A DNA stretch of 5,192 nucleotides from a virus (lineage: Duplodnaviria > Heunggongvirae > Uroviricota > Caudoviricetes). Below are positions 593 to 5,192 of this stretch, in pieces; positions within the stretch are counted from its first letter, which is position 1; each line of letters begins with the position of its first letter. Made by a program: the position numbers and the translations under genes. Under the pieces are notes generated by a model. It made no database searches, was not told the DNA's origin, and worked only from the letters and a program-made list of their open reading frames with translations. The stretch lies in the IMG/VR virus record IMGVR_UViG_2778261277_000011; one strand, written 5' to 3'.

Positions 593-943
593 TTACTTCA
601 ACCGTTCACGGGCCGTCTTCGCCTTATGACACGGCCAGCACAGGCTCTGCAGATTGCTGTCGGCATCAGTGCCGCCATGCGCTTTAGGGATGATGTGGTC
701 AACGGTTTTCGCCTCACGCACCACACCGGCACGCAGACATAACTGACATAAACCTTTGTCACGCTCCAGCACACGCGCGCGGATAACATCCCACTTCGAA
801 CCGTAGCCGCGCTGATGACGGGATTGTCCTGGCTTGTATTGCTTCCAGCCTTCGCTTTTGTGGCTTTCGCAATAGCCTGACGGATCAGTAGTAGTATGGC
901 GGCAACCGCGAACGCGGCAGGCTTTTGGGGTTCGTGGTGGCAT
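593..943 (-). CDS. HNH endonuclease, phage packaging-associated (HK97 gp74-like)
   Basis: 116-aa ORF with N-terminal Cys cluster (CRVRGCRH...YCESH) and C-terminal HNH core (VDHIIPKAHGG...NLQSLCWPCHKAKT); immediately upstream of terS in the same orientation. Confidence 0.85.
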   Translation of the reverse strand: MPPRTPKACRVRGCRHTTTDPSGYCESHKSEGWKQYKPGQSRHQRGYGSKWDVIRARVLERDKGLCQLCLRAGVVREAKTVDHIIPKAHGGTDADSNLQSLCWPCHKAKTARERLK

Positions 944-3361: not shown

Positions 3362-3437
3362 TTCGTCATCTCTCACCTCGCGATATTTGCGGGTGCTGTG
3401 TTGGAAATAAAAAGGCCACGCAACGTGACCACCAGAA

Positions 3438-4490
3438 TTATTTCCCCACCAGTTCACTTACCTCTTTCACCGTCTGATTAAACCGCTCTGACTCAAGTTC
3501 AACACCTAACGCCCGACGCCCCAGCGCCATTGCCGCTTTTATTGTGGAACCGGATCCCATAAAGAAATCAGCAACCAGATCGCCTGGTCGACTACTGGCA
3601 CTGATTATTTGCCGGAGCATATCCGCAGGCTTCTCACACGGATGTTTACCCGGGTAGAACTGAACGGGTTTATGCGTCCAGACGTCGGTATAAGGCACGG
3701 AAACTGATACGGAGAAATAGCGCCGGAGAGTTTTAAACTCATCCAGCAATTCAGAATATTTGCGATTCAGTGAATCATAAGATGCCACCAGCTGGTGGTG
3801 TGGTTGCTCCAGTTGTTGTTCCTGAAACTTCTCTGCCGCTATACGGGAAAACAGTGCCTGCAACTTCCGGTAGTCAGCCTCATTCGGCAACTGCCACTGA
3901 CTGGCACCAAACCAGTGGGAAACCATATTTTTCTTACCAGTGGCTTCGGCAATCTGTTTTGCCGTTATACCCAGTTCGGCACGAGCATCCCTGAAATACG
4001 AAATCAGCGGTGCCATTATGTGCTGTTTGAGTTGACTTTCTTTTGCCGCATAGCCGTCACTTTTGCCGCGATATGGTCCCTGGTAATGTTCAGCAAACAG
4101 AACGCGTTCTGTTGCGGGAAAATATGCGCGCAGACTTTCTTTATTACACCCGTTCCATCGTCCGGACGGCTTCGCCCAGATAATATGGTTAAGAACGTTG
4201 AAACGTTCACGCATCATGATCTCGATATCAGATGCGAGGCGATGTCCACAGAACAGGTAAAGGCTTCCGGCAGGTTTCAGCACCCGCCAGAACTGGGCCA
4301 GACAGTGGTCCAGCCACTTCAGGTAATCTTCGTCCCCTTTCCACTGATTGTCCCAACCGTTGGGTTTCACCTTGAAGTACGGCGGATCGGTAACAATCAG
4401 GTCAATGGAATCATCAGGCAGGGACTGAATAAAATGCAGGCAATCAGCGTTGATTAAATCAACACTGTTTATTTTTACAGTATTTTTCAT
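3438..4490 (-). CDS. DNA methyltransferase, beta-class amino-MTase (probable N6-adenine, possibly N4-cytosine); orphan, no restriction partner in window
   Basis: 350 aa; motif IV DLIVTDPPYF near the N-terminus and motif I FFMGSGST near the C-terminus (order IV then I = beta class); ATG at 4490..4488; located in the late operon between the leader and the holin. Confidence 0.88.
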   Translation of the reverse strand: MKNTVKINSVDLINADCLHFIQSLPDDSIDLIVTDPPYFKVKPNGWDNQWKGDEDYLKWLDHCLAQFWRVLKPAGSLYLFCGHRLASDIEIMMRERFNVLNHIIWAKPSGRWNGCNKESLRAYFPATERVLFAEHYQGPYRGKSDGYAAKESQLKQHIMAPLISYFRDARAELGITAKQIAEATGKKNMVSHWFGASQWQLPNEADYRKLQALFSRIAAEKFQEQQLEQPHHQLVASYDSLNRKYSELLDEFKTLRRYFSVSVSVPYTDVWTHKPVQFYPGKHPCEKPADMLRQIISASSRPGDLVADFFMGSGSTIKAAMALGRRALGVELESERFNQTVKEVSELVGK

Positions 4491-4542: not shown

Positions 4543-4639
4543 TGGGCCGTGGTTCGCTTGTGACCAGTAAGCATGAGCGAATGGCTGGCAGGTGCTACCA
4601 ACACCCACCAGCCGCCCATTTTCACAAATTAAAAGTCCT

Positions 4640-4834
4640 TCATTGCTGAAGGCGTCTGTAACAGCCGAACTGGTAATCTGCCAGCCCCGCCATAACCAAC
4701 TGGGTCAGTATTAACTGACAGCGTTCGCGTGAAAGATATGTGTTTTGTGCAATCTCCCCGGCCGTTGTCGGTTCGATGCTTAATTCATTAAAAACAACTT
4801 TCGCCGTTTCTGTCATATCTTGCTGTTTTAGCAT
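4640..4834 (-). CDS. Small winged-helix protein resembling the PapI/FaeA family (64 aa from the RBS-supported ATG; track ORF extends to 4858)
   Basis: AAGGA 8 nt upstream of the ATG at 4834..4832; MLKQQDMTETAKVVFNELSIEPTTAGEIAQNTYLSRERCQLILTQLVMAGLADYQ matches the PapI pattern as I recall it (..KTAEIAEAL..YQARYYLLLLEKAGMV..). Family assignment is from memory and not search-verified. Confidence 0.5.
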   Translation of the reverse strand: MLKQQDMTETAKVVFNELSIEPTTAGEIAQNTYLSRERCQLILTQLVMAGLADYQFGCYRRLQQ

Positions 4835-4953
4835 GTCTTTTTTCCTTCTGGTTAACATGACATACCAATAACTCTTGTCTAAAAAGCCAGCAAGATAAAA
4901 AGTCAGTATTCACGATCACCAGCGTGTTTACCGTACTGCCAACATCAAGGCAC

Positions 4954-4976
4954 AAAAAAACCCGCTCAGCGGCGGG
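4954..4976 (-). terminator. Intrinsic terminator on the minus strand (candidate tR'-like late-leader terminator)
   Basis: GC-rich hairpin CCCGC-N6-GCGGG (4961..4976) followed on the minus strand by a T7 run (plus-strand A-run 4954..4960); lies about 50 nt downstream of the candidate late promoter. Confidence 0.65.
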
Positions 4977-5024
4977 TTCTTAAATCTTATCAACGGTAGA
5001 CATACAAAGCCCATCGTTGGAAAA

Positions 5025-5053
5025 ATCTTATCCATATTTTTTGAAAAATGCAA
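5025..5053 (-). promoter_or_regulatory. Candidate sigma70 late promoter (pR'-like): -35 TTGCAT, 17-bp spacer, -10 TAAGAT
   Basis: Minus-strand TTGCAT (plus 5048..5053) and TAAGAT (plus 5025..5030) with exact 17-bp spacing, directly downstream of the Q-like stop; downstream CAACGATGGG resembles the start of the lambda pR' transcript as I recall it. Confidence 0.4.
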
Positions 5054-5084
5054 GCATTATGTCGCCATCTTCGGCGAAAATCAT

Positions 5085-5192
5085 TTATCTCGTCACTTTT
5101 CTTAATTGCGCCTCAGCATATGCTTCTTCCTGCCAGCACTTTGTAACCAGTTTATCAATGACATCTGCATATCCTTTGTACCACTGATAATC
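5085..5192 (-). CDS. Q: Late antiterminator Q-like protein, C-terminal 35 codons (5' end outside window)
   Basis: Minus-strand frame open from the window edge to TAA at 5087..5085: ...DYQWYKGYADVIDKLVTKCWQEEAYAEAQLRKVTR. Resembles the lambda Q C-terminus as recalled (...YDALVVQCHKEES...AVTR). A second frame is also open for 29 codons, so frame choice rests on that similarity. Confidence 0.55.
   Translation of the reverse strand, partial: DYQWYKGYADVIDKLVTKCWQEEAYAEAQLRKVTR

Follow-up and report, generated by a model that had tools for sequence, protein, structure and literature searches.

The question raised by this locus was whether a 10-mer (GATAAGATTT) that occurs twice beside a putative late promoter contributes to the control of late genes. 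The window, which is the whole 5,192-nt stretch of DNA that was analyzed, contained exactly two occurrences of this 10-mer, located 41 nt apart. One of the copies contained the −10 hexamer of the putative promoter, as an earlier note on this DNA had pointed out, and the other copy had been suggested to be a pause element, a Q-engagement element, or a second promoter. Our analysis indicated that the region was very probably the cassette that controls the late genes in an SfV-like lambdoid prophage, with the build of the Q-pR'-tR' region of λ, and that the duplicated 10-mer had no conserved role in it.

The window showed 99% identity to Shigella phage SfV, in which the annotated gene order is Q, terminator, orf47, methylase, terminator, and S/R/Rz. 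The Q stop codon, the promoter, both copies of the 10-mer, and the terminator were all located on the minus strand, and their coordinates are listed in Table 1. The same module was present in 970 of 5426 complete E. coli genomes. It was found in Shigella phage SfV, in the Qin prophage of K-12, and in Stx2c and Stx2k phages; in the Stx phages, it was located upstream of the toxin genes. The practical value of the analysis is in annotation: for a prophage module that is very common, it gives base-level positions of the late promoter, the pause element, and the terminator.

Table 1. Positions in the window of the late control region and of the genes downstream of it
Feature	Position	Strand	Remarks
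Q gene, 3' end	5085..5192	−	Last 35 codons and TAA stop codon (5087..5085); remainder lies beyond the window
pR' −35 hexamer, TTGCAT (−35..−30)	5048..5053	−	Position equals that of λ TTGACT
17-nt spacer, TTTTCAAAAAATATGGA	5031..5047	−	Probable Q-binding element (QBE), based on location and conservation
pR' −10 hexamer, TAAGAT (−12..−7)	5025..5030	−	Variants in relatives: TAAAAT, TAGGAT, TAATAT, TAAAGT
10-mer copy 1, GATAAGATTT (−14..−5)	5023..5032	−	−10 hexamer plus 2 nt on each side
Predicted start (A at 5018) and predicted σ70-dependent pause element AACGAT (+1..+6, 5018..5013), with discriminator-like GGG (+7..+9)	5010..5018	−	Identical to λ
Conserved initial transcribed block (+1..+27)	4992..5018	−	Highly conserved in SfV/Qin-type loci; sequence after +27 is variable
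10-mer copy 2, GATAAGATTT (+28..+37)	4982..4991	−	In hypervariable linker 4978..4991 (+28..+41)
Intrinsic terminator tR'	4954..4978	−	CCCGC 4976..4972 (+43..+47) and GCGGG 4965..4961 (+54..+58), A-U flanks, U7
orf47 (SfV), 72 aa, first gene past tR'	4640..4858	−	Winged-helix-like; weak Pfam DprA_WH match, E = 0.004
N6/N4 DNA methyltransferase (SfV orf48)	3438..4490	−	PF01555, E = 2.7e-42
Second putative intrinsic terminator, GGTCACG-TTG-CGTGGCC-TTTTTATTT	3405..3430	−	Between methylase and holin; read from the sequence

The open reading frame upstream of the promoter had been proposed to encode a Q homolog, and this proposal was confirmed. Its translation in the window (DYQWYKGYADVIDKLVTKCWQEEAYAEAQLRKVTR, ending in RKVTR followed by the stop codon) was identical to the C-terminus of SfV Q. 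Full-length SfV Q matched Pfam family PF03589 with E = 9.5e-54 and Qλ (PDB 7ubm_Q) with E = 8.5e-38, and residues 160-250 of SfV Q aligned with residues 117-207 of Qλ. By definition, PF03589 is the Qλ family (PMC9388147).

The sequence TTGCAT-17-TAAGAT just past the Q stop codon, which had been put forward as the late promoter, reproduced the geometry of λ pR'. Specifically, λ reads TTGACT-17-TAAATT-6-AACGATGGG, and the window reads TTGCAT-17-TAAGAT-6-AACGATGGG. The promoter matched the consensus at 7 of 12 positions, and a consensus scanner made no call at this site; its credibility comes from homology and conservation and not from a match to the consensus. The only call of that scanner was a plus-strand TAGACA-18-AAAAAT (4997..5026), which we rejected, and its promoter call counts were at the chance level.

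To define which parts of the cassette were conserved, we used about 95 related loci. The −35 hexamer, the spacer, the key −10 bases, positions +1 to +27, and the terminator were all conserved in these loci. The sampling was redundant, and part of it relied on a pattern in which AACGATGGG was fixed, so that the conservation of those nine bases in the pattern-derived loci is circular. Conservation of AACGATGGG is tested only by the BLAST-derived set, an alignment of 11 phages. In that alignment, the TTGCA of the −35 hexamer was invariant, as were A2 and T6 of the −10 hexamer, and T1 was nearly invariant. Among viral contigs, the only −35 variants were TTGCGT and TTGTGT, in a scan whose pattern itself fixed TTG..T; the pattern also fixed T1, A2, and T6 of the −10 hexamer, and these loci are uninformative about those positions. 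The scan of viral contigs for the pR' geometry returned almost exclusively λ-type and SfV/Qin-type late promoters. A genome-wide pattern scan yielded 18 matches, seven of which were true cassettes. About seven of the 18 looked like chance matches and four belonged to an unrelated Clostridia/Oscillospiraceae promoter family; both groups were set aside.

The spacer between the two hexamers was identical to the λ spacer at 10 of 17 positions. It hardly varied among phages whose Q genes are closely related, and it was replaced in Kp4866-6, Hafnia, Entomohabitans, and one other locus (L077), where Q was only 35-41% identical. The Q homologs in this 35-41% range were still followed directly by AACGATGGG and a short leader, but the spacers were different. 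The spacer thus tracked Q, which is the pattern expected if it were a Q-binding site evolving together with its Q. The QBE of λ is a 13-bp site located between the −35 and −10 hexamers.

The block downstream of the promoter carried the candidate pause signal. AACGAT-GGG has the same sequence and lies at the same distance from the −10 hexamer as in λ pR', and AACGATGGGCTTTG was nearly invariant in the relatives found by BLAST. In λ, AACGAT at +1..+6, the GGG, and a pause at +16 have been documented (PMC4005639). By analogy, transcription is predicted to start at the A at 5018, and a pause is predicted near +16/+17 (5003/5002). This element was overlooked in the earlier note, which had looked for a pause element in the second copy of the 10-mer; the true pause element would be AACGAT-GGG at +1..+9. 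The conserved block extends to +27, and it corresponds to the interval (+17..+28) over which Q-modified λ complexes undergo scrunching prior to release (PMC4005639); we infer that the two are linked. In some relatives, the terminator starts as early as about +30, so that Q loading must be complete within about 27 nt. A hairpin at the 5' end of the leader (+2..+26) was 96% paired in relatives, yet pairing was maintained via one-sided transitions opposite a fixed 5' arm, and we treated this hairpin as uninformative.

One feature of the λ loading site had no recognizable counterpart beside the pause element of the window. In λ, a −35-like TTGACT (−7..−2) is bound by repositioned σ region 4 in the Qλ loading complex (PMC9388147). 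The window has TTTTTC, which matches at two of six positions. In λ, this −35-like element is an accessory feature and not a defining one. Because the window lacks a TTGACT-like element and its Q carries an insertion of about 40 residues in the 'arm', the loading step may differ in detail from that of λ.

The terminator consists of the stem listed in Table 1, a 6-nt loop, and a U7 tract (4960..4954, +59..+65). In RNAfold, the 5-bp GC core alone had a free energy of −8.0 kcal/mol, which became −13.5 kcal/mol when the A-U extension was included. In related loci, four of the eight stem pairs showed compensatory double changes, and 87% of the cells were paired. A putative rho-independent terminator is annotated at 33675..33710 of the SfV GenBank entry (U82619). 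RNA data were available for the homolog in the K-12 Qin prophage, which has the same cassette after ydfT (quuQ). Published Term-seq data placed an abundant 'orphan' 3' end at 1642356 on the minus strand, which corresponds to +67, just past the terminator, in at least two growth conditions. This 3' end was unannotated, and its average reads (about 1e5 and 5.5e4 in two conditions) were above those of sgrS in the same table. The terminator had been described previously as strong. The compensatory changes and the Qin 3' end indicated that it is real, but its strength was moderate, although the U7 tract is excellent. The consensus scanner also missed tR'; its only terminator call was a weak hairpin at 4652..4637, and its counts were at the chance level. 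The miss probably arose because the scanner extended the stem greedily into the A/T pairs on either side, which consumed the T-run.

The prediction that the terminated leader is much shorter than the λ 6S RNA held, as it is about 63-67 nt long compared to 194 nt. The terminator ended at +52..+67 in nearly all loci that were not of the λ type, and a leader of about 65 nt is a trait of the whole family. A search of the leader and terminator against Rfam at permissive E-values yielded no family. Leu and Trp leaders gave sub-threshold matches (E = 0.11-0.23), which we treated as chance.

Against this conserved background, the second copy of the 10-mer stood out for its variability. Together with T4992, it forms the extended −10-like sequence TGaTAAGAT, with the hexamer at 4989..4984 (+30..+35). 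The exact 10-mer was present in 26 of the 95 related loci, and a comparable hexamer of any kind was found close to that site in about 33 loci. At least 10 linker alleles lacked copy 2, and the linker was absent altogether in Klebsiella phage Kp4866-6 and in Entomohabitans, which represent two genera. The second copy did not covary with the −10 hexamer; in one locus (L105), the −10 hexamer was TAAAGT and copy 2 was unchanged. As for the repeat itself, when the 134-nt region was dinucleotide-shuffled, 2.6% of the shuffles contained an exact direct repeat of 10 nt or longer, and for the 226-nt intergenic region the figure was 5.2%. A coding stretch of the same window (3954..4154) also contained a repeat of this kind. 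The repeat was only nominally unusual. The repeated 10-mer appears to be a lineage-specific coincidence, and copy 2 appears to be one allele of a hypervariable, dispensable linker.

The idea that copy 2 serves as a Q-engagement element found no support: no second candidate Q-binding sequence was detected near or upstream of it when up to three mismatches were allowed, and the only match was the promoter spacer itself. If copy 2 served as a pause element, σ70 retained after the pause at +16/17 would re-bind TGaTAAGAT (+27..+35), and polymerase would stall where the terminator stem begins, near +45, which would tune how efficiently transcription terminates or how long Q has to act. TGnTAAGAT does retain the TG, T1, A2, and T6 of an extended −10 element, and some other linker alleles hold −10-like hexamers, such as GATAAT. 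Moreover, engineered λ pR' templates do pause at a downstream extended −10-like element, and a promoter-proximal AACGAT raises the pause at the downstream element about 9-fold in vivo on such templates (PMC4604602). These templates (Deighan 2011; Goldman 2015) resemble the window in having a proximal AACGAT followed by a downstream TGn-type −10-like hexamer. They differ in that they are synthetic, have a consensus element, and pause at about +35, whereas the TAAGAT of the window (+30..+35) is natural and not conserved. The distribution of the motif described above, with only a minority of loci having it, many alleles and two genera lacking it, and no covariation with the −10 hexamer, argues against a working pause element. 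In addition, the K-12 homolog terminates efficiently without copy 2, the base at −10 from the predicted pause site is not a G, and the hexamer is not followed by GGG. We consider a lineage-specific second pause, together with the proposed stall and its effects, to be unlikely.

A narrower form of this proposal is that the SfV/Ayreon/Stx2c-phage lineage uses tandem σ70-dependent pauses, AACGAT at +1..+6 and TGaTAAGAT at +27..+35, to adjust basal termination. If this quite unlikely arrangement were true, tandem pauses would set the leakiness of late and stx2c expression, and the lineage would provide a naturally occurring parallel to the engineered templates with two pauses that demonstrated σ70 retention.

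The other explanation that we weighed concerned the leader rather than the promoter. The ~65-nt leader might be a stable, trans-acting small RNA similar to StxS, with a 5' hairpin, an A/U-rich single-stranded linker (copy 2) as the seed, and a U-tailed terminator for Hfq. The terminated pR' transcript of Stx phages is indeed processed into the Hfq-bound regulatory RNA StxS (PMC7547250), the predicted fold of the leader has the architecture just described, and the Qin homolog yields the abundant 3' end noted above. However, abundance is expected anyway of a constitutive terminated leader. Small RNAs normally conserve their seed, but the linker is the most variable part of this leader and can be deleted. 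The absence of an Rfam family also argues against a small RNA, and we found no Hfq-binding or target data. A regulatory role for the leader, like the seed-and-Hfq architecture that goes with it, is thus improbable.

Finally, the possibility that copy 2 is a second, Q-independent extended −10 promoter for orf47 and the methylase in the lysogen is extremely improbable and was rejected. TGaTAAGAT could plausibly act as an extended −10 element, and morons located between Q and the lysis genes frequently have promoters of their own (PMC3851460). However, a start about 7 nt further on (+41..+43) would fall at the foot of the stem, so that the transcript would keep the hairpin and U7 and should end at a length of about 23 nt. 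At the −35 position (+7..+12, GGGCTT), one of six bases matches, and relatives with the same downstream genes do not conserve the motif.

A special role for the duplicated 10-mer was therefore not supported, and the repeat that motivated the follow-up revealed no new control element. The reading of the region as a Q-controlled late cassette was supported, and the genes downstream of tR' agreed with it. Lysis and other late genes follow the cassette: orf47, the methylase, holin, lysin, and Rz/Rz1 are all located on the minus strand downstream of tR'. The second terminator, which corresponds by position to an SfV terminator annotated at 35222..35253, lies within this series.

Based on these findings and on the λ precedent, we propose that host σ70 RNA polymerase would initiate at the A at 5018 from TTGCAT-17-TAAGAT. 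Region 2 of σ would then re-bind the non-template AACGAT (+1..+6), backed by the GGG, and polymerase would pause near +16/+17. The Qλ-family protein encoded immediately upstream would bind the conserved spacer between the −35 and −10 hexamers and load onto the paused complex. When Q is absent, polymerase would stop at the hairpin/U7 terminator and release the ~65-nt leader RNA. When Q is present, polymerase would read through tR' and, judging from the sequence, would have to read through the second terminator (3430..3405) as well. The Q-modified polymerase would then transcribe orf47, the DNA methylase, the holin/lysin/Rz genes, and the remaining late operon. Our literature searches found no measured transcription start, pause, or Q-dependent read-through for any SfV/Qin-type cassette, and searches on quuQ and ydfT found nothing useful. 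In the Cappable-seq supplements, no coordinate matched the start site of the K-12 homolog in either genome version.

The closest relative with RNA data, the K-12 Qin cassette, has a Q of the same subfamily (250 aa), the same −35 hexamer and spacer, AACGATGGGCTTTGTAT, and a terminator at an equal distance. It differs in its −10 hexamer (TAAAAT), in its linker (AAGAAAAAGTAG, which lacks the second copy of the 10-mer), in its U-tract, which is only U4, and in its downstream genes (cspF/cspB). Stx phages share with the window a constitutive late promoter that is terminated just downstream in lysogens, which yields a short by-product RNA, and the Stx2c and Stx2k phages carry an SfV-type Q and pR'. 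In the case of the phages that produce StxS, however, pR' and tR' are reported to be 258 nt apart, and the reported product is an RNase E-processed 74-nt RNA (PMC7547250).

Like λ itself, the window has a PF03589 Q gene that directly precedes the promoter, the spacing of the −35 hexamer, 17 nt, −10 hexamer, and 6 nt, an A-rich spacer at the position of the λ Q-binding element, the pause element AACGAT-GGG at +1..+9, and an intrinsic terminator ahead of the lysis genes. The differences are the −35 hexamer (TTGCAT instead of TTGACT), key positions of the spacer, the absence of TTGACT beside the pause element, the much shorter leader, and the methylase moron and second terminator that precede the holin gene. 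SfV Q also differs from Qλ, as it is 250 aa long and has an extra segment of about 40 residues, with two more CxxC motifs, in the zinc-ribbon 'arm'. The comparison of relatives places limits on the Qλ mechanism, and it shows that the spacer tracks Q specificity and that AACGAT-GGG is universal. The cassette is an ordinary, uncharacterized member of a textbook system.

Shigella flexneri phage SfV (U82619) matched the region at 99% identity, and its annotation gives the order Q, putative rho-independent terminator, orf47, orf48, another terminator, S, R, Rz, and Rz1; the annotated putative terminator coincided with the position of the window hairpin. The 35 Q residues encoded in the window aligned to the Qlambda C terminus. 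Full-length SfV Q (250 aa) matched PF03589 (E = 9.5e-54), which is the Qlambda family by the definition of Yin et al. 2022 (PMC9388147), and the solved Qlambda chain 7ubm_Q (E = 8.5e-38). Based on these two matches, the ORF upstream of the promoter was indeed a Q homolog, as the earlier note had supposed. The locus is a Qlambda-type late control cassette, an ordinary and widely distributed representative of this textbook system.

The features that had been described were present as written, and all of the relevant ones were on the minus strand, as listed in the table. A consensus scanner called neither the promoter, which had 7/12 consensus matches, nor the terminator, whose T-run was probably consumed by greedy stem extension. 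The terminator had been described as strong; its hairpin and U7 tract were found, but its stability was moderate (-8.0 kcal/mol for the hairpin core and -13.5 kcal/mol with the A-U pairs).

Features of the late control cassette and downstream region (positions in the window unless a locus is named; + numbering relative to the predicted start at 5018)
Feature	Position	Strand	Remarks
SfV Q gene	L001:2356-3108		L001 is the locus carrying SfV Q; last 35 codons in window, 5085..5192
Q-like ORF 3' end, ...QLRKVTR-stop	TAA at 5087..5085	-	ORF runs off window end
-35 hexamer TTGCAT	5053..5048	-	31 bases after ORF stop
17-nt spacer TTTTCAAAAAATATGGA	between TTGCAT and TAAGAT	-
10-mer GATAAGATTT, copy 1	5032..5023	-	-14..-5
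-10 hexamer TAAGAT	5030..5025	-
TTTTCC (6 nt)	5024..5019 region	-	between TAAGAT and AACGATGGG; -6..-1
AACGATGGG	5018..5010	-	directly after TTTTCC
10-mer GATAAGATTT, copy 2	4991..4982	-	+28..+37
Terminator stem CCCGC/GCGGG	4976..4972/4965..4961	-	6-nt loop, A-U flanks; +43..+58
U7 tract	4960..4954	-	3' of hairpin; +59..+65
Second intrinsic terminator GGTCACG-TTG-CGTGGCC-T5ATTT	3430..3405	-	between methylase stop (3438) and holin

On the plus strand, a promoter-like sequence (TAGACA-18-AAAAAT with TG, 4997..5026) pointed back into Q; it is probably meaningless, as such matches occurred at chance count. Rho-terminated antisense transcription within ydfT is listed in K-12 data.

Lambda pR' reads TTGACT, 17 nt, TAAATT, TGACTC, and AACGATGGG, and the window promoter reads TTGCAT, 17 nt, TAAGAT, TTTTCC, and AACGATGGG; all spacings were equal and the nine bases past the 6-nt gap were identical. 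Lambda carries the -10-like element AACGAT at +1..+6; its re-binding by sigma70 produces the +16 pause required for Q loading, and the GGG that follows reinforces the sigma70 interaction (PMC4005639; PMC9388147). By homology, transcription would start at the A at 5018, the pause element would be 5018..5013 plus the GGG at 5012..5010, and polymerase would be expected to pause near 5003/5002. The earlier note overlooked this AACGAT-GGG element, which is identical to that of lambda, and proposed the second 10-mer as a possible pause element.

The intergenic region was found in 36 phage records, down to ~75-80% identity (BLAST), and in 970 of 5426 complete E. coli genomes (megablast). Scanning viral contigs with the pattern TTGNNT-17-TANNNT-6-AACGATGGG yielded >120 loci, nearly all of which fell into two families, namely a lambda type and an SfV/Qin type (TTGCAT, TTTTCAAAAAATATGGA, and TAAGAT, TAAAAT, or TAGGAT). 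In SfV/Qin-type loci the -35 hexamer, the spacer, and +1..+27 were strongly conserved. The -10 positions T1, A2, and T6 were retained in the BLAST-found relatives, the only set informative on these positions because the scan pattern fixed them. Where Q was only 35-41% identical (Klebsiella phage Kp4866-6, Hafnia, Entomohabitans, and contig L077), the spacer was different and AACGATGGG and the short leader were kept, which is the behavior expected of a putative Q-binding element co-evolving with its Q.

Compensatory double changes were found at 4 of the 8 terminator stem pairs. Because almost all non-lambda-type loci had a terminator ending at about +52..+67, and a terminator finder located none comparably early in lambda-type loci, the short leader is a trait of the whole subfamily rather than of this phage. 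The leader is, as the earlier note stated, much shorter than lambda 6S RNA, with ~65 nt predicted here versus 194 nt in lambda (tR' at about +194). Phages HannyBb (L010:1001-1134 = 38785-38918) and PhiR63_1 carried a second pR'/pause/terminator cassette ~1.8 kb downstream of the Q-adjacent one, with no tblastn match to a Q homolog upstream of it. Unrelated TTGCAT-17-TACAAT-6-AACGATGGGAGATGATACCATGG sequences in Oscillospiraceae, Pyramidobacter, and Clostridia MAG contigs (L137, L138, L139, and L146) also matched the pattern; these look like a promoter and 5' UTR before a conserved gene start, common to gut Firmicutes MAGs.

The E. coli K-12 Qin prophage has the same cassette after ydfT (quuQ), with TTGCAT, the same spacer as the window, a TAAAAT -10 hexamer, AACGATGGGCTTTGTAT, and a terminator. 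Its predicted start is NC_000913.3 1642422(-). Term-seq data tabulated by Adams et al. 2021 include an 'orphan' 3' end at 1642356(-), or +67, with average reads of ~1.0e5 and 5.5e4 in two growth conditions. This abundant, unannotated 3' end (context ...CCCGCTGATGAGCGGGTTTTGTG followed by C; about 4357 in the Qin contig L133) coincides precisely with the terminator of this homologous leader. Thus, the Qin cassette yields a short terminated RNA in vivo whose length, counted from the predicted start, is the expected one, implying a constitutive ~67-nt RNA from a cryptic prophage. The abundance of this 3' end, a leader architecture like that of Hfq-type small RNAs, and the production of such an RNA (StxS) from Stx-phage pR' leaders (PMC7547250) would fit a small-RNA function, but we consider this unlikely, as the hypervariable and dispensable linker between +27 and the terminator stem speaks against a conserved seed. 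A possible 5'-terminal hairpin of the leader (ACG.UGGGC/GUCUA.CGU, 4993..5017, +2..+26) was 96% paired across relatives, but via one-sided transitions only; it could stabilize the mRNA 5' end, and lambda likewise has ACGA...UCGU at a similar place.

Exactly two copies of GATAAGATTT were present in the window. Dinucleotide-preserving shuffling produced an exact direct repeat of at least 10 nt in 2.6% of cases for the 134-nt region and in 5.2% for the 226-nt intergenic region, and coding segment 3954..4154 also contained one; the excess over chance was only marginal. Copy 2 lies in the single non-conserved stretch of the leader. After the invariant ...CCGTT at +27, at least 11 linkers were found among relatives (GATAAGATTTAAG, GATAATCTTCAAG, GATAATTTTCACG, GATAAGTCTCAAG, GGTAAATGTCAAA, GATGAGTCCAAG, GAGAATCTTCAAG, AACGAAATCATAAC, AAGAAAAAGTAG, TAGAAAAAAGTAG, and GAACAATTTTTAC), and 26 of the 95 loci had copy 2 in exact form. 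Kp4866-6 and Entomohabitans essentially lack the linker, and their terminator comes directly after the conserved block. Lineages with a TAAAAT or TAGGAT -10 hexamer had unrelated linkers, and one locus (L105) had a mutated -10 region (GATAAAGTTT) and an unchanged copy 2; therefore, the two copies do not covary.

With the T before it, copy 2 spells TGaTAAGAT (+27..+35), which makes a fair extended -10-like motif. When lambda pR' templates are engineered to carry a downstream extended -10-like element, polymerase pauses there, and the proximal AACGAT raises this pause ~9-fold via sigma70 retention (PMC4604602), so a second pause near +45 is physically plausible; that it is a selected function in the SfV-like lineage nevertheless seems very doubtful. 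Copy 2 as a second site for Q engagement, like those constructed artificially for Q82, was ruled out because no second spacer motif (within 3 mismatches) was found upstream of it, and a promoter there would begin transcription at the base of the terminator stem, so that its transcript would still terminate. From these points we conclude that copy 2 serves no conserved function. Several sister alleles start with GATAA, so a few substitutions probably sufficed to create the exact match to the -10 region. Thus, the proposed cassette is real, but the duplicated 10-mer that made the locus look special is coincidental and lineage-specific, lying in a variable linker of an otherwise textbook system.

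Mosaic junctions were seen at ~4950 and 4991/4992. Several phages lost similarity to the window a few bases past the terminator (their BLAST alignments stop at query positions 241-251), and linker/terminator alleles reassorted relative to -10 alleles, as in L073, a locus with a TAAGAT hexamer and a sal3-type linker and terminator. Together, the junctions and the reassortment raise the possibility that recombination uses the conserved +1..+27 block as a joint.

The +1..+27 block corresponds to the region over which lambda complexes modified by Q scrunch prior to release (PMC4005639), and this, together with the predicted threading of the Qlambda torus by RNA at 15-16 nt (PMC9388147), is consistent with a terminator able to start at +30..+43. 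Unlike lambda, the window has a methylase and a second terminator before the holin; orf47 and the methylase therefore make up a moron bounded by terminators within the late operon. An HNH endonuclease ORF (116 aa, 593..943, minus strand) sits at the far end of the late region, the location it also has in SfV (orf53) and in other cos phages. In lambda, repositioned sigma region 4 is held at the TTGACT beside the pause element against the tip of the Q arm (Yin et al. 2022, PMC9388147). No -35-like TTGACT was recognizable there in SfV/Qin-type promoters, which have TTTTTC, TTTTCC, or similar, so Q loading may depart from the lambda scheme at the step involving sigma region 4. SfV/Qin-type Q is also longer (250 aa versus 207 aa in lambda), with ~40 extra arm residues carrying two added CxxC motifs. 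The resulting four motifs (C113, C148, C161, and C187, versus two in lambda), together with a sub-threshold DnaJ CXXCXGXG match, suggest a double-zinc arm, located in the part of Q through which the lambda protein touches both its Q-binding element and sigma region 4.
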